NCBI GenBank assembly: GCA_018266175.1 | Contig: JAFEAY010000003.1 | Span: 168,642-232,641, forward strand | Length of the DNA stretch: 64,000 bases | Reading direction: 5' to 3' | DNA from: Candidatus Babelota bacterium | GTDB lineage: Bacteria; Babelota; Babeliae; Babelales; RVW-14 | Shown here: piece after piece, positions 222-59,510 of the stretch | Position numbering within the stretch: the first letter of the stretch is position 1 | Layout: each line of letters opens with the position of its first letter | Translations under genes and position numbers: made by a program | Notes under the pieces: model-generated | The model's database searches: none | What the model was told of the DNA's origin: nothing | Seen by the model: the letters and a program-made list of their open reading frames with translations, nothing else

Positions 222-3167
222 ATGCAATTTATATCACAACTATTTTTAAGTTTTGTTGGTGTTGTGCTGGTAACCAGCAGCGTGGTGCATAGCACTATAA
301 ACCCACTCGTATTTAAAAGAGTACTTGGTTGCTTTAGACCAGGTATGGAAGTATATGCGCCAAATTTGGGGCAAGTTGCTCTTAAAATTGGATTAGTAGA
401 AACAATACGGATGTACGGTGTCCAGCCCGGGTTTGAGACCGATGGTAAGCGCAAGTGGATTAATGATAAAGCACCTGATGGTGATCCAGTGGTTGCACTT
501 GCACGCGTGCTATTTCCATCACCAACAGGACAGTTAACTCCTGAAACAAGTTCACTAAAGAATATTGGTCGATATTTGAAAGTGGCTGATATTGCCAATC
601 TCTTGAATTTTTGTAAGAGAATACGAGATATAGAGCAACATGCACAAAATCATAGATTGTTTTACAAAAAAGAAACACCTCAGTCTCAGTATTGGAATAA
701 GAAAAGCTCTGAGAAAAAAGGAAATAAACTTTCGAATATATTTTATCATAGCAAAAAAAAATCAATTCAAGATTTTTTAGCTTTATTTGATAGATTTTCA
801 GATGATCTTTATTTTCAAGATTTTTTAGAAACTTTCACTTTTGATATTAAAGAAAATGAACAATTCAAAAAACTGATTTATTTTCTCTTTAAAATCATTG
901 AGCGTGAAGAGCGTCTCGACTGGTATCCACAAAATTTATATCCAAAATACCAATCTGAGCAACTCTTAAATGCATTTTTTTGTTTAAAGTTTGGAGCAGA
1001 TGATATCCCAGAGTTATTAGAAAATTTGGACGATTCAATTGTTAATAAAGATGCGTTATTTAAACCATATGAATCATGCTTGTCAAGTAGCTCTGATAGT
1101 GAGATGGTTGATAATGCACAGAGCACACTTATAACACAGGATGATGTAAATGAAGTTCTGCTTAAAGCACAAAACGGACCAAGCGATCTTTCGCTGGATG
1201 ACGTGTGGGTATTATTATCCAAAGATGCATTACTAAACATTACCCCTTACTCAGACACAAAGCTGCCTATTAATAACGGCTTGGTTGATATGTACAATCG
1301 TACAGATGATGAATTAATTGATAATCACCAATTTCCCGATTGTGTTGAAACAACCGTACGCCATTTGTGCAACTTAGCTTTATATTCAGATAAAATCCAA
1401 AGCTTTGATCTTGAGAAGCTCAGAGTTCATATGCAAGGCTCACCGTACCTGAAAAACATAGAAAATTTTTATGCACTTCAGACTCCACACAAAGCAAATT
1501 CAGGAGAGAGGTCAATTCGTAATGCATGGAATAAAGTGGTTGCGGGTGTTGACAATGTGCGCTATTGCAGAAAATATAATGATGCCTATCTGAAAAATTA
1601 TAACGAACTTGATTCCGGAATTATTAATATTCTATCTCTTGTAAATACTATCTTTGTCTTAGATCTTGCACCAAAGCCAGTGTATCAAGATGATGTGCAA
1701 TTTGTTCAAGCAACTTCTCAATGGGTAAAAGATTCTCTACAAAAACTATTTCATGTATTGAGTCCCCAAAAAAAATGTGTAATAAACGTTGCGAATGTAG
1801 AACACTTCAAGCGGCTTGAGGGTGGTCAGATCGATTGTTCTTGTATAATTACAATAACGGTCGATAAGTCCGTTGAGTTTGTCGTAGATGTTATGAGTTC
1901 TCATGCAAAATTTAATTCAATAAAGATAGTAAAAAAAGAAGAACAATTTCCTAATGATCTTTATCAAGCAATCAAAGAAGAAATATATGATTTTAATGCA
2001 ACTGTTTGTGAATCGGTTTGTTTATTAAATAAAAGGTTGCATGATGCAATATCAATACCAATTTATAAGCTTTTTAATCTACCAATTAATGATAGCGCTG
2101 AAATTATCAAAGCACTTGAAAACTTATGCATACTTTTAGAGCAAAAACTTGTTTTAGAAAATTCTGTTGGAATGTATTTGAAGAACTTACTCCAAAGCTT
2201 TTTGTGGTCTGATGTATACATGGCCAAGAGGATTCAGCCAGTCATCAAACAATTCAAACAATTGTTGCGTAATCAGGGTAGATGCCAAGAAATTTTTAAG
2301 CATGAAGTTAAATATATTAACGGTGAGATACTTGATGAAGATGCTGCGGTACTTTTAACATTTTTTTCAGGAGTTGAATCTTTTTCTGGATTAAAAAAAG
2401 ATTCATTTATTTTTAGAATTTCTGAACTAAATGAAGTAATAAAAAAAATTAATCTTTCTGGGTCGGAAATTCAAAAAATAGAAGGCCTAGAAAATTGTCC
2501 GAATCTTGAAGAGCTTATTGTGATGACTGCAAAAAATCTAAGACATATTGAACTGCTATCTCAGATGAGTCTATTAAAAACCATTGATCTTTCAGGAACA
2601 CAGGTTGAAGAGATACAAGGTCTAGAGAATTGCCCAAATCTTCAAAATCTTAACCTGAACGGTATAAATGTAAAAATACTAAAACTGCCTTGTGGTATGA
2701 ATAATTTGAAGCAGATTGATCTTTCTTGCTCGTCTGTTGAAGAAATAATAGGCCTAGAGAATTGCCCAAGCCTTGAAAATATTAGCTTAATATGTTCAAA
2801 AAATTTAAAGATATTAAAGCTCTCACCACAGATGAATCAATTAAAATCAATTAATCTTTCTTGGTCAGTAATTGAACAAATAGATGGTTTAGATAATTGT
2901 AAAAATATTGAAAATCTTGATCTGCATAAGACAAATAACTTAAAAAAGATAAAGCTTTCAGGCAAAATGAATCAATTAAAAACAATTGATGTTAGTCTGT
3001 CAGGGGTGGAGGAAATAGAAATTATGAGTCATATGCCTGAATTAGTTGAAATTAAGGGACTGAACAGCTTGCAAAAAAAACCTCTTTTTAAGGGAATTGA
3101 ATTTTGTTCTTTTGAATTGCAAGAAAAAATTATAGCATATGCAACTATTGCATCCCTCTGTATTTGA
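222..3167 (+). CDS. Large leucine-rich-repeat (LRR) protein with an uncharacterised ~740-aa N-terminal region; effector-like
   Basis: 981-codon ORF. The C-terminal ~200 aa (roughly nt 2450-3050) are tandem ~22-aa LRRs read directly: IEGLENCPNLEELIV, IQGLENCPNLQNLNL, IIGLENCPSLENISL and IDGLDNCKNIENLDL alternate with LKTIDLSGTQVEE-type units (SDS22-like pattern). The N-terminus is hydrophobic (LFLSFVGVVLVTSSVV). Start codon uncertain. Confidence 0.8.
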   Translation: MQFISQLFLSFVGVVLVTSSVVHSTINPLVFKRVLGCFRPGMEVYAPNLGQVALKIGLVETIRMYGVQPGFETDGKRKWINDKAPDGDPVVALARVLFPSPTGQLTPETSSLKNIGRYLKVADIANLLNFCKRIRDIEQHAQNHRLFYKKETPQSQYWNKKSSEKKGNKLSNIFYHSKKKSIQDFLALFDRFSDDLYFQDFLETFTFDIKENEQFKKLIYFLFKIIEREERLDWYPQNLYPKYQSEQLLNAFFCLKFGADDIPELLENLDDSIVNKDALFKPYESCLSSSSDSEMVDNAQSTLITQDDVNEVLLKAQNGPSDLSLDDVWVLLSKDALLNITPYSDTKLPINNGLVDMYNRTDDELIDNHQFPDCVETTVRHLCNLALYSDKIQSFDLEKLRVHMQGSPYLKNIENFYALQTPHKANSGERSIRNAWNKVVAGVDNVRYCRKYNDAYLKNYNELDSGIINILSLVNTIFVLDLAPKPVYQDDVQFVQATSQWVKDSLQKLFHVLSPQKKCVINVANVEHFKRLEGGQIDCSCIITITVDKSVEFVVDVMSSHAKFNSIKIVKKEEQFPNDLYQAIKEEIYDFNATVCESVCLLNKRLHDAISIPIYKLFNLPINDSAEIIKALENLCILLEQKLVLENSVGMYLKNLLQSFLWSDVYMAKRIQPVIKQFKQLLRNQGRCQEIFKHEVKYINGEILDEDAAVLLTFFSGVESFSGLKKDSFIFRISELNEVIKKINLSGSEIQKIEGLENCPNLEELIVMTAKNLRHIELLSQMSLLKTIDLSGTQVEEIQGLENCPNLQNLNLNGINVKILKLPCGMNNLKQIDLSCSSVEEIIGLENCPSLENISLICSKNLKILKLSPQMNQLKSINLSWSVIEQIDGLDNCKNIENLDLHKTNNLKKIKLSGKMNQLKTIDVSLSGVEEIEIMSHMPELVEIKGLNSLQKKPLFKGIEFCSFELQEKIIAYATIASLCI

Positions 3168-19249: not shown

Positions 19250-20257
19250 ATGATCAACCAATCATTATTTTTTATTGCATTTTTTGCTATCACATTTTCT
19301 ACATCAACGATAACACCTCTTTCACTTGTTCACGGCTCATGGAGTGCACAAGGTGAACGAACGAGCCAGCAAGACAGATATGTAAGTAATACGTTTGGTA
19401 TTGAGGATAAACAAGTCTATTGCTTTGGTATTTTCGATGGCCATGGCCAGGTTCGCATGGGACACCTTGTTGCTCAGTATGCACAAAATCACCTACACAA
19501 TGAACTTGCACCAAAAGTAGTGTCACTCTTCCAATCAAACAACTTACACCGCGTACCAGATCTCATTCAAGAATCATTTCAAGAATTTGATAAAGATTTA
19601 AAAAACAAGAATCCTAATTTTACTTTTAATAGCGGAACAACCGCAACAACGATAATGATCATCGAAGATCACTGTATTGTTGCAAACGTTGGTGACTCGC
19701 AAGCGTATCTTCAGGTATCCAATTTAATGGCGCCACAAGTCCTCACAGAAAATCATGTTCTTAATGAAAATTTTTGCAAACAATTTGAGAAATCTGATAC
19801 TACTTATTTAGAAAAAAGAGTTACTACAGAAATCTTTTACCAAGACTTTCCATTTAATCAAGAAAATTGCATCCGAAGAATCCATCACAATACTTACATT
19901 GTTGCTCAATACGATAATGAGAGAGGAGCCTATGAAAGCTTATTAAATTTGTCACGAACTCTTGGCGACTCACTCTTTTTCCCGCACGTAACGGCTCTTC
20001 CATTCGTACAAAACTTCTCTTTAACGCCAGAGCACCAGTTTATTATCATTGCAAGTGATGGCTTGTGGGATAATATGACCGGCAAAGCAGCAACAAATTT
20101 TGTACTAGCCTACCTTCAAGAAAATGATATGAATATACAGACAATAACACCTGACCAGGCACAAACCATAGCACAAGCACTTGTAGACGCATCACTTACA
20201 ATCAGCAAGCACGATAATACAACTGCAACCATTATCTTTTTTCAACACACTCCATAA
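19250..20257 (+). CDS. PP2C-family Ser/Thr protein phosphatase with N-terminal signal peptide
   Basis: PP2C motifs in order: RTSQQDRY, FGIFDGHG, SGTTAT, VANVGDSQAY, IIASDGLWD, DNTTATIIF. Hydrophobic N-terminus MINQSLFFIAFFAITFSTS. Confidence 0.8.
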   Translation: MINQSLFFIAFFAITFSTSTITPLSLVHGSWSAQGERTSQQDRYVSNTFGIEDKQVYCFGIFDGHGQVRMGHLVAQYAQNHLHNELAPKVVSLFQSNNLHRVPDLIQESFQEFDKDLKNKNPNFTFNSGTTATTIMIIEDHCIVANVGDSQAYLQVSNLMAPQVLTENHVLNENFCKQFEKSDTTYLEKRVTTEIFYQDFPFNQENCIRRIHHNTYIVAQYDNERGAYESLLNLSRTLGDSLFFPHVTALPFVQNFSLTPEHQFIIIASDGLWDNMTGKAATNFVLAYLQENDMNIQTITPDQAQTIAQALVDASLTISKHDNTTATIIFFQHTP

Positions 20258-41665: not shown

Positions 41666-41685
41666 TCCAGTCCACTTACTCACGA

Positions 41686-41720
41686 ATTCAAAAAGGGTCG
41701 GCAGCAATGTCGGCCCTTTT
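41686..41720 (+). terminator. Rho-independent terminator of OMP1; copy 1 of a duplicated 34-nt sequence
   Basis: attcaaaaagggtcggcagcaatgtcggcccttttt forms a hairpin with G-U pairs followed by a T-run. It is repeated at 42576-42615. Confidence 0.65.
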
Positions 41721-41794
41721 TCTTTTGGTTAGGAAAACCTACAAATCACTCTCCCGCGCTCCTATTTGGCAAAGCGCTCCTATTTGGCAAAGCA

Positions 41795-41823
41795 TTGATT
41801 TTGTATCATAAATTTGGTACAAT
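41795..41823 (+). promoter_or_regulatory. Sigma70-type promoter of the Gp49/HigB-like TA cassette
   Basis: TTGATT (41795-41800), 17-nt spacer, TACAAT (41818-41823). Preceded by an 18-bp tandem duplication gcgctcctatttggcaaa x2 (41756-41791). Confidence 0.6.
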
Positions 41824-41852
41824 TAGAGAAAATAGAATGCATAAGGAGCTGT

Positions 41853-42236
41853 ATGAAAGCGCAATTCATTGCTTATAAAGGTAAAGAATTTACCGTTGAG
41901 TGGTATTTTAATAGTCAAGGTAAAAGTAGTTCACTTAAATATTTTATTGAATTGCCTGAAGAGCAGAAAGATAAAACTTTTTACTTAATTCAAACATTAG
42001 CTGACGTTGGAAAAATCATCAATAAAGAAAAATTCAATTATGAAGGCAATCAAATTTTTGCGATCAAGCCTTCCTCCAATAGATTTTTATGCTTCTTTTT
42101 TGAGGGCTCTAAAATCATCATCACGAATGCATATAAAAAACAAACACAAAAAATGCCTCCCAGGGAAAAAGAACGCGCTTTAAAATCAAAAGATGACTAT
42201 ATCAAACGACAGAGAGAAGGAGTTTACTATGACTAA
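41853..42236 (+). CDS. Type II toxin, Gp49/HigB-like (RelE/ParE superfamily)
   Basis: Start at the ATG at 41853 (AAGGAG upstream). Collinear with the ORF at 49629-49991 (FIAYKGKEFTVEWYF..., NKEKFNYEGNQIFAIKP..RFLCFFFEGSKIIITNAYKKQTQKMPPREKERA). An XRE gene follows with an 8-nt overlap. Confidence 0.7.
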   Translation: MKAQFIAYKGKEFTVEWYFNSQGKSSSLKYFIELPEEQKDKTFYLIQTLADVGKIINKEKFNYEGNQIFAIKPSSNRFLCFFFEGSKIIITNAYKKQTQKMPPREKERALKSKDDYIKRQREGVYYD

Positions 42237-42561
42237 AAAGAACAACGAAAAAACAACCTTTGAAGAATTCATGGATGCAAAAACACCAAATCAAAAAAAA
42301 GATTATGCGGACGGATATCGCAACTTCTTACTTTCAGAACTCATTTTGGCAGCCATGGAAGAAGATCACGTTTCAGTAAGAAAGCTTGCAAAAATTGCTG
42401 ATGTATCACCAACTATTGTTCAAGATATGAAATCAGGAAACAAAGTAAGTTTCAATACAAAAAGCTTATTCAAGATTCTTACGGTCCTGGGATATGATAT
42501 TTTGCTTGAACGCAATGGGACAACTACCTCATTAGGGCTCACGCAAAGTATAAGAAAATAA
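42229..42561 (+). CDS. XRE-family HTH antitoxin (HigA-like)
   Basis: Start at the ATG at 42229 (AAGGAG upstream). HTH VSVRKLAKIADVSPTIVQDMKSG. Paralogue of 49289-49615. Confidence 0.7.
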   Translation: MTKKNNEKTTFEEFMDAKTPNQKKDYADGYRNFLLSELILAAMEEDHVSVRKLAKIADVSPTIVQDMKSGNKVSFNTKSLFKILTVLGYDILLERNGTTTSLGLTQSIRK

Positions 42562-42575
42562 AGTTTTAACTCAAG

Positions 42576-42615
42576 TATTCAAAAGGGTCGGCAGCAATGT
42601 CGGCCCTTTTGAATA
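42576..42615 (+). terminator. Copy 2 of the duplicated terminator, downstream of the TA cassette
   Basis: tattcaaaagggtcggcagcaatgtcggcccttttgaata differs from copy 1 by one A in the A-run over the shared 34 nt. Confidence 0.6.
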
Positions 42616-42949: not shown

Positions 42950-43588
42950 ATGTTGAAAAAAAATCAAATCATATCGTTACTTTTGGTAACAGCACTTGTC
43001 AGTGGTTCTTGCTTCACCATCTCAGCAGCAGATGATACAGCAGCTCCAGCAGCAGCTCACGATCACGATCACAAAAAAGGCGAAAGTTGCCCGCTGAAAA
43101 AAGGTAAACCAGCATGTCCGCTTGCCAAAAAAGCTGCTGAAAAGAAAGTTGTATCAAAAAACCCATCATGGAAAGATCGCTTTTTTGGCAACAAAGAGAC
43201 CAAGCGCGATCCTGCAACAAAACCAACTCCTCGCGCACGCAAAGCAAAAGCACCATCAAAGAGCTGGTGGTCTTTTTGGGGTGAAGGAAAAGAAGGCAAA
43301 GCTGCTGCAACCAAAGAAAATCGTACACTCAAAGGACAAAAAGCTCGCCGCGCTATGAAGCAAGCTGGTAAAAAAAGTAAACCAGGTAAAGCACGCAAAT
43401 CCGGTAAAAAAGGCAAAGCTGGTAAAAAAGCTGGTAAGTCACGCAAAGCTGGTAAAAAAGGCAAATCACGCAAGTCACGTAAATCACGTAAATCACGCAA
43501 AGCTGGTAAAAAAGGCAAAGCGGGCAAAAAAGACAAGAAAAACAAAAAGAATAAAAAAGAACAATCAGACGTTATTGTTGTAAAATAA
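42950..43588 (+). CDS. Exported protein with polybasic (KSR/KAGKKG-repeat) tail
   Basis: Start at the ATG at 42950 (AGGGAG upstream; the track ORF begins 186 nt earlier). Signal peptide IISLLLVTALVSGSCFTISA, a HDHDHKKGESCPLKKGKPACP patch, then KSGKKGKAGKKAGKSRKAGKKGKSRKSRKSRKSRKAGKKGKAGKKDKKNKKNKK. Confidence 0.65.
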   Translation: MLKKNQIISLLLVTALVSGSCFTISAADDTAAPAAAHDHDHKKGESCPLKKGKPACPLAKKAAEKKVVSKNPSWKDRFFGNKETKRDPATKPTPRARKAKAPSKSWWSFWGEGKEGKAAATKENRTLKGQKARRAMKQAGKKSKPGKARKSGKKGKAGKKAGKSRKAGKKGKSRKSRKSRKSRKAGKKGKAGKKDKKNKKNKKEQSDVIVVK

Positions 43589-43619: not shown

Positions 43620-43656
43620 AAACCCCGCAAGCATCATAAGCTGCGGGGTTTTTTCT
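43620..43656 (+). terminator. Rho-independent terminator
   Basis: aaaccccgca-agcatcataagc-tgcggggtt followed by ttttctc. Confidence 0.75.
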
Positions 43657-43752
43657 CAAAAGCTTGATCTGACAACAATCGCCGAACAAGCTAAAAGGCA
43701 TGAAGCTTTACACAATGTAGTGTTACGTGATTTTTAGGATAGGAGAAGAAAG

Positions 43753-45271: not shown

Positions 45272-45378
45272 AACATAAATCATCAAAATCCTCGCCCGTG
45301 CGGGGATTTTTTTATTTATGCTATACTTGTCAGTATAAAAAAATATCGTTTCACCTCTTTCCCGAAAGAGTGCAAAAC

Positions 45379-47070
45379 ATGAAAATGCTTCCAATCGGTT
45401 TTAGTGATTATAAAGAACTCATTGATGGAAACTTTTATTACGTTGATAAAACATTATTGATCGATGAGCTCTACCACAGAGGTGGCAAGGTCACCCTGGT
45501 CCCTCGACCTCGACGATTTGGCAAAACATTAAATCTTTCAATGCTCAAATATTTTTTTGAAAAAACGGCAAGATCAAACGCCTATCTTTTTGAAGATAAA
45601 AAAATCTGGGGCATTCCCAAGATGGTCCAATTGCAGGGGAAATTTCCTATTATTTTTGTCACGTTTAAAGACATCAAAGAGAGTACCTGGGACGTAAGCA
45701 GAAGCAAGCTTGTTGGAATAATTTCACAAGAATATGCTCGACACAGCTACTTGCTTGATTCAGATCTGCTGAGCGATCACGAAAAAGATATTTTCAAAAA
45801 CATTTGTACAAAAACCGCAACGACCGCAGAGTACCACAATAGCCTTTTAAATCTTTCTCAATTTTTAGAACGCTACCATCAGGCAAAAACGATTGTTTTG
45901 ATTGATGAATACGATTCTCCCATTCACGCAGGATATCTCAACAATTATTATTCGGAGATTATTGAATTTACCAGAGGATTGCTGTGCGCCGTACTCAAAG
46001 ATAACTCCAGTCTTGAACGAGGCGTTGTGACCGGCATTTTGCGCACCGCCAAAGAGGGGATCTTTTCGGGGCTCAATAACCTCAAAATTTTCACGCTTTT
46101 AGATGAACAATTAGCCGATAAATTTGGATTTACAGAAAAAGAGATTGAACAACTACTTCACAATTACAACCTTGAGTCGATTGCGCCAGAATTTAAATCT
46201 TGGTATAACGGATACTTGATTGGAAAAACGAAAATCTATAACCCCTGGTCGGCCCTTAATTGTGCGGATAGATCAGGTGACCTCATTCCCTACTGGGCAA
46301 ACACCAGTGACAATGGGCTCATTAAAAAAATCATTGCAACTTCCACAACCGATATTCAAGATTCCTGCGCTGAGCTTCTACACGGCAACGCCGTTCCAAA
46401 TATCGAAATTAACGACAAAATGGTGCTTCCTGGAATGATTAATGACTCAGATTCAATCTGGTCACTCCTTCTTTTTAGCGGGTATATCACCATCAATCAA
46501 TGCGTTCTGAATGCAAAAGGGAAGTTCATCTGCTCGTTGGTATTGCCAAACAGAGAACTCAATTCACTCTTTGATGATCTGGTTACTGCACTCTTCAAAG
46601 AAGGCTTGGAGCATAAAAATATTATCGCCCTTGGGCATGCACTGCGTGACGCTGATGGTGAGCTTTTTAGCATACTGCTTTCAAAATTTATGATACAGAG
46701 CATCAGCTGCCATGATCTGCATGACACTGAGCCGGAAAAGAGCTATCATCTTTTTGTTCTTGGTATGCTTGTTGTCTACTCAGAAAGCTATACCGTCCGA
46801 TCGAATCGGGAAAGCGGCTATGGTCGATTTGATATCATGCTCATCCCGCATGACAAAAATCGACCAGGAATTGTCATAGAGTTCAAGAAAAAAGACGATA
46901 AGGAAACCATGGACCAGTGTGCTAATCGTGCACTCAAGCAAATTAAAGAAAAACACTATGCAACAGAATTGCGCAGCCAAGGAATCGACAAGATCGCCTT
47001 TTTTGGTATCGCCTGTCACAACAAAGAGGTCCTCCTCAAGCAGGAAAACGAGGACAAAGAGCACGCTTAA
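45379..47070 (+). CDS. AAA-ATPase-like domain protein with C-terminal PD-(D/E)XK nuclease domain
   Basis: Start at the ATG at 45379. N-terminal signature LPIGFSDYKELIDGNFYYVDKTLLIDEL...LVPRPRRFGKTLNLSMLKYFF. C-terminal ESGYGRFDIMLIP...GIVIEFKKK (E, D, ExK). Confidence 0.75.
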   Translation: MKMLPIGFSDYKELIDGNFYYVDKTLLIDELYHRGGKVTLVPRPRRFGKTLNLSMLKYFFEKTARSNAYLFEDKKIWGIPKMVQLQGKFPIIFVTFKDIKESTWDVSRSKLVGIISQEYARHSYLLDSDLLSDHEKDIFKNICTKTATTAEYHNSLLNLSQFLERYHQAKTIVLIDEYDSPIHAGYLNNYYSEIIEFTRGLLCAVLKDNSSLERGVVTGILRTAKEGIFSGLNNLKIFTLLDEQLADKFGFTEKEIEQLLHNYNLESIAPEFKSWYNGYLIGKTKIYNPWSALNCADRSGDLIPYWANTSDNGLIKKIIATSTTDIQDSCAELLHGNAVPNIEINDKMVLPGMINDSDSIWSLLLFSGYITINQCVLNAKGKFICSLVLPNRELNSLFDDLVTALFKEGLEHKNIIALGHALRDADGELFSILLSKFMIQSISCHDLHDTEPEKSYHLFVLGMLVVYSESYTVRSNRESGYGRFDIMLIPHDKNRPGIVIEFKKKDDKETMDQCANRALKQIKEKHYATELRSQGIDKIAFFGIACHNKEVLLKQENEDKEHA

Positions 47071-47185
47071 AAGTAACGTTGCTGGTTAACTTCAACTCAA
47101 AATACAATTTTTGCGATCACCAAAATATGCTATACTTAGCCCAACGTATATAACACACCCCCTAACAACCTGCTAGGAGTGCTCA

Positions 47186-48097
47186 ATGGTATTTCTTGAC
47201 CCCCGCAACGATGTTGCATTCAAAAAAATATTCGGATCAGAAGATCACAAAAATATCACCATCTCATTTCTCAACTCCATCTTAGAATACACGGGCGATC
47301 GAGCAATTAAAAGCATCACCTTCATGAACACCGAACAGCTTGAAATTGTTCGCCTCAAAAAAGAGAACGTCCTTGATATCATGTGTGTTGACCATGCCGG
47401 CAGCCAATTCATTGTCGAGATGCAGGTTGAAAACGTTAAAGAGTTTGGCAAACGCATGGTCTATTACGGCGCAAAAACCTACACCATTCAGCTCAGCAAG
47501 GGTAAACCTTACTACAAACTCACCCCCGTTATTGTGATAGCAATCACCAACTTCATCATGTTCCCAGACAAAAAAGATTACAAATCAATCCATCACCTTG
47601 CAGATACCAAAACAGGTGAAAACGACCTCAAAGAGCTGTACTTTGCTTTTGTCGAACTCCCTAAATTTAAGAAAAAAGAATCTGAGCTTAAATCTGCCGA
47701 AGATAAATGGATCTATTTTATCAAGACGATGAAAAAGCAAACCGAAATTCCAGCCCCTCTTGCCCGAGGTGAATTTGAAGATGCGTGCCATATGGCACAG
47801 CGTGCCGCTTGGTCTGAAGATGAACTCAACGCTTATGATGATGCATTTGTCAAAGCAACCGATGCTCAAACATCTGCAGAACTGGCTGAAGAAAAAGGAC
47901 TAGAACGCGGTCTTAAAAAAGGCTTAGAACAGGGCTTAGAACAGGGCTTAGAACAGGGCTTAGAACAGGGCTTAGAACAGGGCAAAGCTAAAACCCAACG
48001 CGAAATGGCTCGAAAGTTACTTTCCAAAATGAGCATTGCTGATATTTCAGAACTTACCGGCTTATCAATTGAAGAAATTGAGGCGCTCAAAGATTAA
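47186..48097 (+). CDS. Rpn/YhgA-like PD-(D/E)XK recombination-promoting nuclease / putative transposase
   Basis: N-terminal LDPRNDVAFKKIFGSEDHKNITISFLNSIL. Nuclease core LDIMCVDHAGSQFIVEMQV. C-terminal (GLEQ)5 repeat. Confidence 0.75.
   Translation: MVFLDPRNDVAFKKIFGSEDHKNITISFLNSILEYTGDRAIKSITFMNTEQLEIVRLKKENVLDIMCVDHAGSQFIVEMQVENVKEFGKRMVYYGAKTYTIQLSKGKPYYKLTPVIVIAITNFIMFPDKKDYKSIHHLADTKTGENDLKELYFAFVELPKFKKKESELKSAEDKWIYFIKTMKKQTEIPAPLARGEFEDACHMAQRAAWSEDELNAYDDAFVKATDAQTSAELAEEKGLERGLKKGLEQGLEQGLEQGLEQGLEQGKAKTQREMARKLLSKMSIADISELTGLSIEEIEALKD
47921..47980 (+). repeat. 12-bp tandem repeat x5 (ggcttagaacag) encoding (GLEQ)5
   Basis: Read directly. Preceded by two degenerate units (GLER, GLKK). 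Confidence 0.95.
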
Positions 48098-48125
48098 TTT
48101 TTATACTAAAAACCGGGTGTTCTTC

Positions 48126-48156
48126 AAAAAGTAGCACAGCTTGTGCTACTTTTTCA
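48126..48156 (+). terminator. Rho-independent terminator
   Basis: aaaaagtagcac-agcttg-tgctactttttc. Confidence 0.7.
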
Positions 48157-48207
48157 TAAGCAAGAAAATTAGATTACGAAGTAGGATAACAGATCCTCAA
48201 TTTCCCC

Positions 48208-48269
48208 TTCACACTACTCCTCTCAAACCATTTTTGCAAAATACTTGATCTGCCTGCTCTGCTTGCATA
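48208..48269. repeat. Cassette-bracketing repeat R1 (44-nt core at 48226-48269)
   Basis: ttcacactactcctctcaAACCATTTTTGCAAAATACTTGATCTGCCTGCTCTGCTTGCATA. The core differs at no more than 2 positions from R2 and R3. Confidence 0.85.
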
Positions 48270-48280
48270 AATGAGCAAAT

Positions 48281-48708
48281 CTATCGAGTAAGCTGCAATG
48301 TGTGCTGAAGCTGCTCAAGAAACATAACGCTTTTTGTACGACCAATTTTTTTAAGATCTTCTTGTGCACCAAATAGAGCCAACTTAAAATCAGCTGAATC
48401 TTTAATTACGGTTACAACATTCAAGATTTCTTGAACAAATTGCGACAGATGGTTTTTTATAATATCAAAAATATCTTCATAATTGAGTCCAAAATATTCA
48501 TGCGAAATAACATTTCTGAAGTCTACAACTTTCCTCCATTTTGGATTAACAAGATGTTGAAGCGTTGTTGATTTTAATAGACGGCCGTAAAAAGCAATTC
48601 ATCTGAAACAAAATTGATTGGGTCTGTGACATGAGCCATGTGTCGAGCAACAGCATCGCTTGCAACAAGTATATCAATAATAAAAAACTCAGCTTTGCGA
48701 TTAAGCAT
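48281..48708 (-). pseudogene. hepT: HEPN/DUF86 toxin (HepT-like), frameshifted
   Basis: ATG at 48708 overlaps the mntA stop by 8 nt. It translates MLNRKAEFFIIDILVASDAVARHMAHVTDPINFVSDELLFTAVY then TAA at 48576-48574. A second frame continues ...KWRKVVDFRNVISHEYFGLNYEDIFDII... (the RxxxxH HEPN motif) to the stop at 48283-48281. Confidence 0.7.
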
Positions 48709-49006
48709 AAATAAGATCCTTTTCAACATGATGCATGATGAAACTTCTTACTGAATCGAAATAACCAACATCAACCTTTTTGCCAAATCTTTGCTCTAAG
48801 AAATCACGCAGCTCAAGTCGCTTCTCAAAACTTTTATGTGGCATTTCAATAAGAAGATCAATATCACTATCTGGCCCTGCTTCGCCTCGTGCGTAAGAAC
48901 CAAAGAGAGCAATTTTTATAACGCCAAATTCTTTTTCAAGTAAGCTCTTATTGCCTTTGAGAAATTGGATAATAATCTCTTTGTCACAACCTTGTTCTTG
49001 TATCAT
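48701..49006 (-). CDS. mntA: Minimal nucleotidyltransferase (MntA-like antitoxin)
   Basis: ALFGSYARGEAGPDSDIDLLIE (GS...DxD of the NTP_transf_2 fold), 101 aa. Confidence 0.8.
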   Translation of the reverse strand: MIQEQGCDKEIIIQFLKGNKSLLEKEFGVIKIALFGSYARGEAGPDSDIDLLIEMPHKSFEKRLELRDFLEQRFGKKVDVGYFDSVRSFIMHHVEKDLIYA

Positions 49007-49103
49007 TTTTCATCCTCCAAAAAGTTTTTTACAACACCAGTTTCAGCTTACCATAACTTGGGGCAAGACAAAGTAGCCTCTCTTTTTTCCTGTTTTTTGC
49101 TGA

Positions 49104-49185
49104 TTCACACTACCCCTCACAAACCATTTTTGCAAAATACTTGATCTGCCAGCTCTGTTTGCATAGGCTCAAAAGTAAACTTACA
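49104..49185. repeat. Cassette-bracketing repeat R2 (core 49122-49165)
   Basis: ttcacactacccctcacaAACCATTTTTGCAAAATACTTGATCTGCCAGCTCTGTTTGCATAggctcaaaagtaaacttaca. Confidence 0.85.
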
Positions 49186-49288
49186 AACTAGCTTCTATAC
49201 CGTTCATTATTTTTGTTGATGAGGTTGTTGTTTTCAACACAACTTGGTGCAATAGAGCAAAAAAATAAATTTTGAATAATTTGCTCAC

Positions 49289-49615
49289 TTATTTATAAAG
49301 GTGAGTCAAATCTAAAGAAATTTGATGTCCATTTCGCTCGATAAGAACCTTACACCCAAGGCCATTTAAAACTTTAAAGAAACTTCCCATATTGAAATCT
49401 TTGTTAATTCCTGAGCGCATGCCTTGGATAACCGTTGGTGATACCCCTGCAAGCTTTGCAAGCCTCCTTACGGAGATTTTATCTTCTTCCATCGCAGCAA
49501 GAATCATTTCTGACAACAAAAGATCTTTATATTCTTCGTCAAAAGCTTTTTTTTCTTTTGGACTTAATGATTCAATAAATGTATCGATCGTTGATTTTAT
49601 CTTTTTATTAGCCAT
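49289..49615 (-). CDS. XRE-family HTH antitoxin (HigA-like), paralogue 2
   Basis: Start at the ATG at 49615 (GGAGAC upstream). ISVRRLAKLAGVSPTVIQGMRSG. Collinear with 42229-42561. Confidence 0.7.
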   Translation of the reverse strand: MANKKIKSTIDTFIESLSPKEKKAFDEEYKDLLLSEMILAAMEEDKISVRRLAKLAGVSPTVIQGMRSGINKDFNMGSFFKVLNGLGCKVLIERNGHQISLDLTHLYK

Positions 49616-49628
49616 AAGAGTCTCCAAT

Positions 49629-49991
49629 TTAAAACCTTTTTTCATAATTTTCTTTTGCCTTTAAAGCTCGTTCTTTTTCTCTTGGTGGGATCTTTTTTGT
49701 TTTCTTTTCATATGCATTCGTAACAATTACCTTTGAACCATCAAAGAAAAAACATAAAAATCTATCTGGTTGTGGCTTCAAGGCATAAATCTGATCACCC
49801 TCGTAACAAAACTTTTCTTTGTTAAATATTTTTCCGCTATCACCAAGCAGTAAAAAGAGCTGCGCAACCTTCTTCTTCCTAGCTGGAGTAAGGCTTTCAA
49901 AATATTCAAGCGCTTCACTTTTTCCTCGGTCATCAGAGTACCATATCAACGTAAACTTTTTACCCAGATACGCCATGAATTTTTCTTTCAT
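49629..49991 (-). CDS. Type II toxin, Gp49/HigB-like, paralogue 2
   Basis: Start at the ATG at 49991 (GAGGAG upstream). FMAYLGKKFTLIWYSDDRGKS..., NKEKFCYEGDQIYALKPQPDRFLCFFFDGSKVIVTNAYEKKTKKIPPREKERA. Confidence 0.7.
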   Translation of the reverse strand: MKEKFMAYLGKKFTLIWYSDDRGKSEALEYFESLTPARKKKVAQLFLLLGDSGKIFNKEKFCYEGDQIYALKPQPDRFLCFFFDGSKVIVTNAYEKKTKKIPPREKERALKAKENYEKRF

Positions 49992-50162
49992 CGGCTCCTC
50001 AAGCAAACAGATGTGGGATGTTTAGAATCATAAATAAACGTACCACGATCATAATACATTGTCCATTAATTTAAGATAATCGCACAGCAAGACGACTCGG
50101 CTGCTTGACTCATAATACCGTCCTCTTCACCACCAATTCACCCTAACTCCTTTACGATCATC

Positions 50163-50226
50163 AACCATTTTTGCAAAATACTTGATCTGCCTGCTCTGTT
50201 TGCATACGCTCAAAAGTAAACTTACA
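50163..50226. repeat. Cassette-bracketing repeat R3 (core 50163-50206)
   Basis: AACCATTTTTGCAAAATACTTGATCTGCCTGCTCTGTTTGCATAcgctcaaaagtaaacttaca, with weaker similarity extending upstream to about 50126. Confidence 0.85.
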
Positions 50227-50235
50227 GGTTAGGCA

Positions 50236-50559
50236 ATTCTATCTTGTTGCGATGCAAAGCAATCTTGATGAACCTAAAGCGACAGGATGGCCTCTTGACT
50301 CGCTGTAGCCTCCTGGCTCGCCATAGCTTGAAAAGCGACGGCGGCTGGCAGAGGCGGTTGGGCGCCCGGCGAACTCAGCCAATCCGTCGCTAGAGCTTTG
50401 CGATAGAGAGTAATACCGCAATCGGTAAACTTTGGTGGGGTTTCCAAGGGGCTGGCCGCCCGACTTCGCGTAAAGCTACGACGGGCTGGCAGCCCAGATG
50501 GCGGGCATGTCCGCCGTAGTTCGTAGAACGTAGGAGGATGGTAGGTACCGCGTACCTAC
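50236..50559. repeat. GC-rich mosaic repeat, arm A (inverted relative to arm B at 59076-59510)
   Basis: Block 50499-50559 is the reverse complement of 59076-59136 with 2 mismatches in 61 nt. Further collinear blocks pair 50427-50449 with 59188-59210, 50369-50400 with 59236-59267, and 50267-50290 with 59281-59304. The track ORFs here (50239-50632) look like artefacts of GC richness. Confidence 0.8.
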
Positions 50560-50644
50560 AAAAAGATAAGCTATAAAAAATAATATTCTCTCCAAGCAAA
50601 ATGAATACCATCGATAAGTTATAAACGAACAATGTTATTTTGGT

Positions 50645-50674
50645 GGATCCCGGATCGGAGTCCGGGATGACATC
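50645..50674. repeat. Small palindromic element GGATCCC-hairpin-GGGATGACATC
   Basis: ggatcccggatcggagtccgggatgacatc has the same ends as the copy at 59754-59783 (opposite strand). Confidence 0.6.
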
Positions 50675-50820
50675 GTGGGATATTAAAAACCAGTTTTAAT
50701 TCGTAGCTCTGGTATTCATAAATGAAGTAGAAATGGTACTGATCGATAAAATGAGAAAAATAATAATTTAAAAAACATTGCACAGATACCTAAGCCGAAT
50801 AATCTTAAAAAGGAGACCGT

Positions 50821-52296
50821 ATGATGAAAACAAACCTCATTGCGCTACGCCGCATAACCTTCCTAGCCCTGGCACTGACCGCCAGCACGGCACTGCTGGC
50901 CGACGGCGACGCCAGCAACAAAACCTTCTTGTCACCACGCTCGCCAAGCGTGAACATGGCGCACAAGTACACCACATGGGCTGACCATGTGTATGGCAAG
51001 CGCTGCGGCAAGGCACAGACCAGCTTTCAGCTGACTGGATTCTTTTCGGAATCGGAAAAGGGGAAAGATTTAGGGAACTATTTTGGTATTGGGAATAAGA
51101 GCAACAGCTTTACGGTTGGCCCAACAACTGCGCCTGGTGAAATCAATACAGATTTCTTAATGCATGATTTTGCAGGAATTGGAAATGCTTCTGGCACTAT
51201 CACCCTTGCTCCACGCCAAGAAGCCTGGGGCGCACGCTTAGACTTCTTTCAAGACCTTCATTTCCGATTTGGAAAATTCTTTATTGCAGCCACTCTCCCT
51301 ATCGTTCATGTACAACAAAACATGCGCATCCAAACAACCGATGGTTTGCCAACTCGAGCTATTGGCGGCACACAATTTACCCTTGAAGATTTTTTCAGTG
51401 GAAAATTTGAAAACGCTGATCCTGCTGATGCTGAAAATAAACAATCAGCACTGACTAAAGCAAAAATTGGTGGCAGCCATTCAGAAACAGGCGTTGCTGA
51501 CATCGAACTTGAACTTGGCTGGAAAGCACTTGAAAGCAAAAAGTGCCATATTTTCTTAAACCTTGGCTTCACCATTCCAACCAGCAACAAGGCTGATGGC
51601 GAATTTTTGTTTGAGCCGATCTATGGCAACGGCGACCACTTCGCCTTTGGTGGCGGCATTGATGCTGGCGTAACCTTGTGGTGCAAAGATAAGAACAAAG
51701 TCCGCTTGCTTCTTGCTGGAGACTACCGTTTCTTATTTGACAATACACAAAAGCGTACGCTGGGAGTTATGGACGATGTCGGCGTACCACAGAGATTTGG
51801 TCATTATGCTGCAGGCTATAAACTTCTCCAGGATCCAGGAACCCCACTTTTTCCACTAGCAAATGTATTAACACAAAATGTTGGCGTTGAACCGGGTAGT
51901 CAAATTGATGCACTTGCAGCACTTTCGTTCAACTTCTGCCGCTTAACTTTTGATGCTGGTTATAACCTCTTCTGGAGAGATAAAGAATCAGTCAAAGTAA
52001 AAGCTTGGGAAGATGGAGTTTACTACCAAGCTAGCATTCTTCGCGATGCAACTGATGCTTTTACTCTTGTTAATGCAGGTCTTGACACTCCTATCAATCG
52101 TAAAAATTTAAACATCGCGGCAGCAGCAACACCATCACTCCTTTCTCATAAAATATTTGGTAGCTTGGCTTACTCAGGCAAAATTAAAAATCAGTATCCA
52201 TGCAGCTTTGGTGTAGGCGGATCGTATGAGTTTGCTGATACCAACGCGGACCTTGAAAATTGGAGCGCTTGGATTAAAGCAATTCTCTCATTCTAA
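50821..52296 (+). CDS. Outer-membrane beta-barrel protein, paralogue 3
   Basis: Signal peptide ITFLALALTASTALLA, NKTFLSPRSPSVNMAHKY, YGNGDHFAFGGGIDAG, AGYNLFWRD, C-terminal IKAILSF. AGGAGA precedes the ATG. Confidence 0.65.
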   Translation: MMKTNLIALRRITFLALALTASTALLADGDASNKTFLSPRSPSVNMAHKYTTWADHVYGKRCGKAQTSFQLTGFFSESEKGKDLGNYFGIGNKSNSFTVGPTTAPGEINTDFLMHDFAGIGNASGTITLAPRQEAWGARLDFFQDLHFRFGKFFIAATLPIVHVQQNMRIQTTDGLPTRAIGGTQFTLEDFFSGKFENADPADAENKQSALTKAKIGGSHSETGVADIELELGWKALESKKCHIFLNLGFTIPTSNKADGEFLFEPIYGNGDHFAFGGGIDAGVTLWCKDKNKVRLLLAGDYRFLFDNTQKRTLGVMDDVGVPQRFGHYAAGYKLLQDPGTPLFPLANVLTQNVGVEPGSQIDALAALSFNFCRLTFDAGYNLFWRDKESVKVKAWEDGVYYQASILRDATDAFTLVNAGLDTPINRKNLNIAAAATPSLLSHKIFGSLAYSGKIKNQYPCSFGVGGSYEFADTNADLENWSAWIKAILSF

Positions 52297-58935: not shown

Positions 58936-59075
58936 TTCGGGCTGCAAACGGGGGGTGGTTTACAGGGGTGGCACCCCTGTAGGCTAGAAGGATGGTATTT
59001 GATGGATGGTTGTTATCCTAAACTCAAAGCTCAACCTGCTTTAGATTATGGTTTTTATCTAAACTCCCGTGTTTC

Positions 59076-59510
59076 GTAGGTACGCGGTACCTACCATCCT
59101 CCTACGTTCTACGAACTATGGCGGACAGGCCCGCCAAGGTACATCCCGCTCATGCTGAGTGCCCAGCTTGCTGGGTGTATCGAAGCACCTTGGAAACCCC
59201 ACCAAAATTTGTCCAACTCTTAATTACTCTTTTTTCGAAGCCTTAGCAACGGGTTGGCTAAGTTCGCAAGGCGCTCAAGGCCACCCTGTTGCTTTAAGTT
59301 CACCAAAATTACTCTGTACCTGTTATAAATTCCGCCTGAGCTCTAACAAGCCGGAGCCTGTCCGCTTAAGTTCACTACGACTAAGCTCCCGACGTCGCCC
59401 TCTGGGCTATGGCGAGGCAGGCAGGATAAACTCTGTTCAAAGAACGAAGGCGGGAGCAAGGTTGAAGAGATTCAGCTGTGCGGCGCTCTTCGACTAAGCC
59501 TATACCTGCA
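59076..59510. repeat. GC-rich mosaic repeat, arm B
   Basis: See arm A. It starts with the hairpin gtaggtac-gcg-gtacctac and contains extra copies of modules (cctgtccgcttaagttcac, gggctatggcgagg). The track ORF 59159-59497 is considered non-coding. Confidence 0.8.

Follow-up and report, generated by a model that had tools for sequence, protein, structure and literature searches.

A triplicated candidate porin promoter at a hot spot of toxin-antitoxin and nuclease gene insertion in a Babelota bacterium

Several described systems place small mobile genes between repeated sequences or beside duplicated ones. Integrons consist of the integrase IntI, an attI site and attC sites, and toxin-antitoxin (TA) cassettes are part of the superintegrons of Vibrio; the pdif modules of Acinetobacter plasmids lie between Xer sites, with TA genes as frequent cargo and no integrase linked to them; and homology-facilitated illegitimate recombination, together with Campbell-type additive integration, is established from transformation studies in Acinetobacter and Streptococcus. 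Here we describe a 64,000-nucleotide (nt) stretch of a Candidatus Babelota genome (contig JAFEAY010000003.1, positions 168,642 to 232,641; the window in what follows) in which three copies of a repeat, R, alternate with two TA cassettes upstream of the outer membrane porin gene OMP3. An earlier note on this DNA, made from its letters alone, had offered as possible readings an integron-like array, serial insertion at an att-like site, and a promoter carried by the cassettes. We find that R is native to the OMP3 locus and single in relatives, and that the three copies in the window differ in ancestry and in end points. The feature is a triplicated native element, most likely the promoter of the porin gene, at an insertion hot spot for TA and nuclease genes; it is not integron-like, and nothing found calls for a new kind of machinery.

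A pattern search of the window with the degenerate 44-nt core of R returned exactly three matches (Table 1), all on the plus strand and with 0 mismatches; none of 100 shuffled sequences held any match, and 0 are expected by chance. The core starts are spaced by 896 and 1041 nt, the only variable positions are 30 (T/A) and 37 (C/T), any two copies differ at no more than two positions, and each copy contains the perfect palindrome TTTTGCAAAA. Similarity extends past the core: R1 and R2 have a common left flank (ttcacactac.cctc.caa), and R2 and R3 a common 20-nt right flank, gctcaaaagtaaacttaca, which we call Y, while the left flanks as a whole fall into two types, X and X'. On all these points the earlier note proved accurate, as it did in seeing two TA cassettes bracketed by the repeats, mntA/hepT (with hepT broken) and higBA, which domain matches and tblastn bear out. 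Relaxed thresholds brought no further copies to light in the window. The array reads Rpn-R1-hepT'-mntA-R2-higA-higB-R3-OMP3, with all genes between R copies on the minus strand, and it is not an assembly artefact, because two independent JGI metagenome contigs (L001 and L002) carry the same layout at 99.9% identity; in short Logan contigs the breaks fall exactly at the repeat. Samples with this strain include JGI 3300056626 and 3300056999, SRR29289984, SRR26424594, DRR350542 and SRR26425194. Exact-protein look-ups for cassette gain or loss between strains returned the same strain only, at 99.9% identity. A 21-mer from the core had 0 matches in a genome contig collection that apparently lacks the source genome, and five in metagenome contigs that apparently do not include it either, all of them chance matches and none extending.

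The comparison that places R at its locus is with relatives, by which we mean contigs found through OMP3 orthologues; these are metagenome contigs of Dependentiae (TM6), to which protein names assign the window as well, and their OMP3 proteins share 60-83% amino-acid identity with that of the window. Among them and the window, the spacer between OMP2 and OMP3 exists in four states. There may be no cassette and one R upstream of OMP3 (L012, 68%; L013, 65%; L021, 60%); OMP2 and its terminator T2 may be followed by hepT-mntA, one R and OMP3 (L011, 76%; L009, 73%), with hepT intact in L011 and truncated in L009; the 3' end of an Rpn gene, 205 nt and higA-higB may precede one R (L022); or, as in the window, all three cargo units may occur together with three copies of R. 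The single R of the second and third states occupies the place of R3 in the window: over 80 nt, R3 and the single R of L009 and L011 share 93.75% identity, and L022 matches window positions 49271-50227 at 88.6% nucleotide identity, a match within which higA-2 is kept. In the cassette-free loci, the best match to a profile of the R copies always lies just upstream of OMP3 (L012 9794-9870, E 2.9e-4; L013 283-338, E 0.03; L021 75-130, E 0.3). Because a single R stands upstream of OMP3 in cassette-free relatives, R is native to this region and is not carried by the cassettes. One part of the earlier note is supported, namely that serial insertion has multiplied sequence from upstream of OMP3. In an integron the repeat comes as part of the cassette and empty sites have none; here it is present in L012, L013 and L021.

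Judged from sequence conservation, R is most likely the native sigma-70-type promoter of OMP3 plus the start of its leader. Its proposed parts would be an upstream T5-NN-A4 tract, a -35 hexamer TTGATC, a 17-nt spacer, a -10 hexamer TACGCT and, in Y, approximately the first 20 transcribed bases; in R3 the candidate -35 and -10 lie at 50184-50189 and 50207-50212. The corresponding hexamers are TTGATC-17-TACGCT in R3, L011 and L009, TTGCTC-18-TATATT in L012, TTGCTC-17-TATGCT in L013 and TTGCCT-17-TATCCT in L021. What stays constant across lineages is the T-tract/A-tract, TTG, the 17/18-nt gap and TA...T: every one of the six lineages compared has TTG with its 17/18-nt spacing, and five of the six have the TA...T of the second hexamer. 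A sigma-70-type promoter should show, ahead of the gene, two hexamers separated by 17 +/- 1 nt that its orthologues share, and TTG-17/18 nt-TAnnnT is found in this arrangement in R3, L011, L009, L012, L013 and L021. Where no later insertion intervenes, 50-150 nt separate the element from the start codon. The left half of R recurs as a paralogous module, TTTTTTCTCAAAAGCTTGATCT, upstream of OMP2 (Table 1), and the window has six matches to this pattern where 0.54 are expected. Core plus Y differ between the window and L011 at 4 of 64 positions, as compared with 76-79% identity in the neighboring genes (P 1.7e-4 to 1.4e-3), and the OMP2 terminator hairpin T2 is identical to that of L009 at 31 of 31 bases and to that of L011 at 30 of 31. 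Since both core plus Y and T2 are so strongly conserved, short regulatory elements in this clade are under strong constraint.

The earlier note had seen promoter-like hexamers on both strands. Those on the plus strand, TTGATC-17-TA(C/G)GCT, are the ones conserved in part in orthologous loci. The minus-strand pair, TTGCAA-17-TAGTGT, did not hold up, its -10 lying in a flank absent from R3, L011 and L009. Nor is such a promoter in R2 needed for mntA: its -10 falls in the X flank, and neither R3 nor L011 has that flank. The region upstream of mntA is conserved with L011 as far as 49061 by BLAST and, more weakly, to about 49095 by eye. We also discarded as noncoding a 15-codon open reading frame (ORF) on the minus strand that starts inside R, MQTEQADQVFCKNG(L), whose start codon is lost and whose sequence is unconserved in L012 and L013.

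If R1 and R2 still fire, antisense transcription would run into hepT and higA, across both TA operons, and the two copies may have been kept as strong antisense promoters that silence or tune these convergent operons. Such a role would concern the function of the copies and not their origin, so it is compatible with the multiplication of a native promoter by recombination; we regard it as a tentative possibility. R1 and R2 are indeed directed at the 3' ends of hepT and higA, both have kept the -35 hexamer and the upstream tract intact, and the hepT gene downstream of R1 has decayed. However, the -10 is altered in both, to TAAATG in R1 and to TAGGCT in R2, and the conservation of the copies could merely mean recent arrival or gene conversion.

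The flanks and ends of the copies bear on how one R became three. The X-type left flank, CACACTACCCCTCACA, is found in R1, R2 and L022, and the X'-type flank (CTTTACGA.CAT.) in R3, L011 and L009. The homology of the R1 left flank to that of L022 has a score reached by 3 of 1000 shuffles, and the 20 bases CACACTACCCCTCACAAACC at the boundary of X flank and core in R2 are identical in L022. On the right side, R1 ends at 48270, where the hepT cassette begins, and R2 runs on through Y and some 20 bases more. Relative to L011 and L009, the segment 45313-48270, which comprises the nuclease-gene block and R1, is extra, and its right end is exactly the end of the R1 core. As the flanks are of two types, one matched in one relative and the other in another, the copies did not all derive from one in-place duplication. 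A duplication of the whole OMP3 leader after R2 was also considered and ruled out, since similarity farther than about 20 nt beyond Y lacks significance (its score is reached in 28-53 of 500 shuffles).

We think it probable that R is the native OMP3 promoter block and that the array was built up by serial additive recombination between lineages with different cargo at a hot spot. The hot spot is the OMP2-OMP3 intergenic region of this Dependentiae lineage, where differing cargo is found just upstream of the candidate OMP3 promoter. Each event would be anchored on one side by homology, in the conserved promoter (R), in OMP3 or in OMP2, and closed on the other side by an illegitimate join, whether by homology-facilitated illegitimate recombination or by Campbell-type integration of a circularized fragment through R, and each added unit would bring, or leave behind, one promoter copy. 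Both the action of R as a promoter and this recombination route are what we infer from the comparison of lineages, and several observations sit uneasily with them. The position of the -10 reads TGCGCT in L022; measured against the E. coli consensus the hexamers are weak, and a consensus scan leaves them unlisted; and the 17-nt spacer, which a plain promoter would not require to be conserved, is conserved too between the window and L011, perhaps because it contains a site for a regulator or for recombination. On its left the hepT cassette ends at the same place, to within about 3 nt, whether it stands beside T2, as in L011 and L009, or beside the R1 core, as in the window, and this shared end fits a discrete mobile cassette better than it fits random illegitimate joins. 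Finally, higB adjoins X' in the window but X in L022, and because of this difference in flank type no sampled lineage is the actual donor.

Some of these same observations would be explained if R were a true site-specific recombination site, on which an Xer-like recombinase, an unknown enzyme or Rpn acts so that TA cassettes integrate and excise as units. The result might then be pictured as a cassette array distant from its integrase, by analogy with the pdif modules of Acinetobacter plasmids. We consider this unlikely. In its favor are the unusual conservation of the core, promoter spacer included, the hepT cassette end that is the same in two contexts, the Rpn nuclease gene abutting R1 and an Xer-like recombinase encoded in the window. 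The claim that no integrase is nearby stands in that gene lists and Pfam scans show no IntI-type gene next to the array and no recombinase within about 20 kb of it, but a gene for an Xer-like tyrosine recombinase does lie 22 kb off (Table 1). Its product matches XerC/XerD best, with scores under the curated equivalog cut-offs, and misses the cut-off for integron integrases by a wide margin (124 vs 265 bits); it does supply the Xer recombinase that a pdif-like system calls for. Against a site of this kind, no dif-like 11-6-11 motif (..CATAA-N6-TTATG..) was found inside R or at its edges, the window as a whole having 14 loose matches against 9.6 expected, and this absence rules out an Xer/dif site. 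No hairpin marks R: the folding of the single-stranded repeat, which the earlier note had proposed as a check, gave -3.3 to -7 kcal/mol over both strands of R1-R3 (z -1.5 to +1.1), none of it significant or attC-like. An integron with attC sites is excluded by this lack of a fold, by the lack of an integron integrase and by the presence of R at empty sites.

The ends of the copies speak against site-specific recombination more generally. R1 is cut directly after the core and R2 continues for at least 20 homologous bases, and because the copies end at differing points and not at one fixed crossover, a site-specific system, and with it the att-like site of the earlier note, is disfavored. Serial attP x attB integration is disfavored as well because the sharing of flanks is the reverse of what it predicts, R1 and R2 agreeing on the left and R2 and R3 on the right. 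Further, R is found at loci that never held a cassette, where it resembles the OMP3 promoter, and L011 and L009 carry hepT-mntA with only one R. As for Rpn, a 75%-identical gene is inserted between fabD and fabG in a lineage from the same sample as L010 (L023 10001-12153, L024 3042-5198), with no R nearby; we see no specific link between the repeat and Rpn, and this R-free gene rules out that R is the end of an Rpn-associated element. Other candidates also fell away: ARAGORN found no tRNA or transfer-messenger RNA (tmRNA) in the window, and R has no match in Rfam, so that nothing points to a tRNA, a tmRNA or a known RNA family. For a transposon or insertion sequence with target-site duplication, the cassettes lack a transposase, the duplicated lengths are unequal (about 63 nt, at least 85 nt and, in the case described next, 43 nt) and the flanks are of different ancestry.

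A second TA pair in the window, higBA-1, also lies between two copies of a local regulatory signal, in this case a terminator hairpin (Table 1), and so makes a second case of the pattern seen with R. The inner 30 nt of the two terminator copies are 100% identical, and the cassette-free L012 lacks both the gene pair and that hairpin. This case invites a reading in which TA cassettes move as discrete units without an integrase, aided perhaps by Rpn-type nucleases or the host Xer, insert beside regulatory signals and duplicate them (the OMP3 promoter threefold, the OMP1 terminator at higBA-1), the conserved 64-nt block doubling as a recombination site. If true, it would explain both the conserved promoter spacer and the hepT cassette end common to two contexts; we hold it, too, to be improbable, though worth keeping in mind. 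Slightly less probable still is that the repeats are long target-site duplications made in place, by staggered breaks or replication template switching, that later diverged. The two cases of cargo bracketed by a duplicated local signal would fit, and the identical inner 30 nt of the terminator are as expected of a recent duplication. Yet R has two flank types that occur in different relatives, flanks far more diverged than the core, and lengths that differ (about 63 nt vs at least 85 nt), and L011 and L009 have the same cassette without a flanking duplicate. Lastly, a simple tandem segmental duplication, or generic ubiquitous promoters with no connection to cassette boundaries, can be set aside in spite of the similarity of the left half of R to the OMP2 promoter module: the sequences between copies (mntA/hepT and higBA) are mutually unrelated, so that the homologous flanks throughout that the earlier note named as its refutation are missing, there are only three full copies in 64 kb, and neither the genome nor the metagenome collection contains a true match to the core 21-mer.

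Two features lie close to higBA-1. Just upstream of higB-1, at 41756-41791, is an exact 18-nt tandem repeat (GCGCTCCTATTTGGCAAA x2) that may be the operator of the antitoxin. Between higBA-1 and OMP2, a 274-aa protein has a lysine-rich C-terminal half, encoded at 43362-43559, with 9-nt periodic repeats (KSRKAGKKG-like).

Table 1. Positions in the window of the repeat copies, the cargo genes and other features discussed in the text
Feature	Position	Strand	Description
Xer-like tyrosine recombinase gene (313 aa)	25129-26070		Phage_integrase and SAM-like domains; only recombinase found in the window (Pfam, NCBIfam)
higBA-1 pair with its brackets	41678-42610	+	higBA-1 at 41814/41854-42561; downstream of OMP1; paralogous to the array pair
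Duplicated 43-nt terminator hairpin	41678-41720 and 42569-42610		brackets higBA-1
Paralogous promoter module TTTTTTCTCAAAAGCTTGATCT	43649-43670	+	83-104 nt upstream of the OMP2 start codon; corresponds to left half of R
T2, OMP2 terminator hairpin	45282-45312	+	conserved left border of the variable region
AAA-ATPase/PDDEXK_9 gene	45298/45378-47070	+	Pfam/NCBIfam
Block with AAA-ATPase, Rpn and hairpin	45313-48204	+	absent from L011 and L009 (junction comparison)
Rpn PDDEXK_2 gene	47186-48097	+	Pfam/NCBIfam
Terminator-like hairpin	48126-48154		between the Rpn gene and R1
R1	48205-48270	+	X-type left flank, core 48226-48269; ends directly after the core, at the start of the hepT cassette
hepT toxin gene	48281-48729	-	broken by a frameshift and the loss of about 13 codons (ORF list, tblastn)
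mntA, nucleotidyltransferase antitoxin of a type VII TA system	48701-49006	-	Pfam NTP_transf_2 and Polbeta; appears intact
R2	49101-49207	+	X-type left flank, core 49122-49165, Y (candidate leader start), about 20 weakly similar bases
higA-2, helix-turn-helix antitoxin	49289-49645	-	weak Pfam HTH_26 match, below curated cut-off (19.8 vs 22 bits); pairs with higB
higB-2, Gp49/RelE-family toxin	49629-49991 (or to 50006)	-	Pfam Gp49
R3	50134-50250	+	copy in native position for OMP3: X'-type left flank, core 50163-50206, Y, native right flank
GC-rich, highly structured insertion (about 530 nt)	50232-50761	+	between R3 and the proximal OMP3 leader
OMP3	50821-52296	+	gene downstream of R3, about 600 nt from the array (ORF list)

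The cargo of the array is made up of recognizable families. The type II HigBA and type VII MntA/HepT pairs each consist of adjacent small toxin and antitoxin genes with the domains of their families. The intact 155-aa HepT of L011 matches the hepT of the window in two frames, with residues 44-56 absent (tblastn). The best NCBIfam match of mntA is MntA_antitoxin (E 1.8e-13), below its curated cut-off (50.3 vs 60 bits), and across the mntA region L011 and L009 share 79-83% nucleotide identity with the window. A protein identical to HigB-2 is named RelE/ParE toxin of Candidatus Dependentiae, and the homologue in L022 shares 96% amino-acid identity. Toward OMP2, the AAA-ATPase/PDDEXK_9 gene forms a single ORF of 590 codons in the window; two genes are called in L001 and a shorter one in L002, differences explained by single-base indels near 46056 (L001) and 45553 (L002), which may be strain-level pseudogenization or assembly errors. 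The Rpn gene contains, at 47925-47985, five tandem 12-nt units (ggcttagaacag, encoding GLEQ), the source of spurious weak matches to FliH. The 2.96-kb block that is absent from L011 has TTTATGC at its start and GCATAAA at its end (45310-45319, 48264-48270). Because the right member of this 7-nt inverted pair belongs to the native R core, the pair may be due to chance.

R3 is now separated from OMP3 by the insertion of about 530 nt listed in Table 1: the stretch from R3 to the OMP3 leader measures 31 nt in L011 vs 530 nt in the window, and the insertion is absent from L011 and L009, common to L010 and L020, and present as a partial inverted copy at 59072-59278. Its GC content is about 55-60%, the fold of 50232-50570 has a z-score of -2.6, and it matches no Rfam family; it behaves like a repeat of the miniature inverted-repeat transposable element type.

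Traces of further elements are seen in the relatives. A different GC-rich palindromic element lies between mntA and R in L011 (1750-1860) and L009 (1595-1706), and next to R the same two contigs have a 42-nt remnant of a second junction of mntA end and hepT start, 81% identical to window 48699-48740, which suggests an older, decayed second cassette. Between the 3' end of Rpn and higA in L022 (77-281 of the reverse complement), a plus-strand fragment encodes ...IENDLVYA*, similar to an MntA-type C-terminus, and may be another decayed cassette. After fabG, L023 has a nucleotidyltransferase (MntA-like) gene and a short downstream ORF, and Rpn and TA genes appear as scattered insertions in these genomes. 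Elsewhere in the window, eukaryote-like domains are present in a RING finger protein (21670-23043), a leucine-rich-repeat protein (222-3167) and a PP2C phosphatase (19250-20257); bacteria living within protists typically have such domains in their effectors.

With four configurations among close relatives, the OMP2-OMP3 spacer is a hot spot of gene flux in Dependentiae. The locus also suggests that a cassette array separated by repeats can arise without an integron, when recombining lineages add one more promoter copy per round and the product takes on an integron-like look, and genome annotators may want to bear in mind that repeats bounding TA cassettes need not be att sites. If the duplicated-signal pattern, seen also at higBA-1, proves general, it could be a common route of TA spread in genomes poor in classical mobile elements.

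Literature searches on TA cassettes between direct repeats and on the TA systems of Dependentiae turned up nothing of relevance. Among known systems, integron arrays come first to mind, as the window has small cassettes, TA pairs included, separated by copies of a repeat. Unlike in integrons, the array has no adjacent integrase, R has no attC-like fold and is a native, probable promoter element that cassette-free loci also have, each cassette comes with an upstream region of its own and runs opposite to the direction of the R promoter, and the R copies end at differing points. As in pdif modules, the TA modules are bounded by repeated sites, a recombinase could act on them from elsewhere, and an Xer-like gene is encoded in the window; unlike pdif sites, R lacks the XerC-6 nt-XerD architecture, and all its copies are direct repeats with no alternation of orientation. 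Islets targeted to tRNA or tmRNA genes and framed by att repeats resemble the window in that direct repeats of 40-60 nt flank tandem cargo, but the array has no tRNA, tmRNA or integrase, and its pattern of extended flanks is the opposite of serial attP x attB integration. The likeness to homology-facilitated illegitimate recombination goes further: the array would have one end anchored by homology (in the promoter, OMP3 or OMP2) and at the other a novel join at a variable position, the anchor is duplicated on either side of the added DNA, and the copies carry the alleles of different lineages. Two differences go with it. The process is reconstructed here from a comparison of lineages, and three successive additions at one promoter, all of TA or nuclease cargo, would be an unusually regular result.

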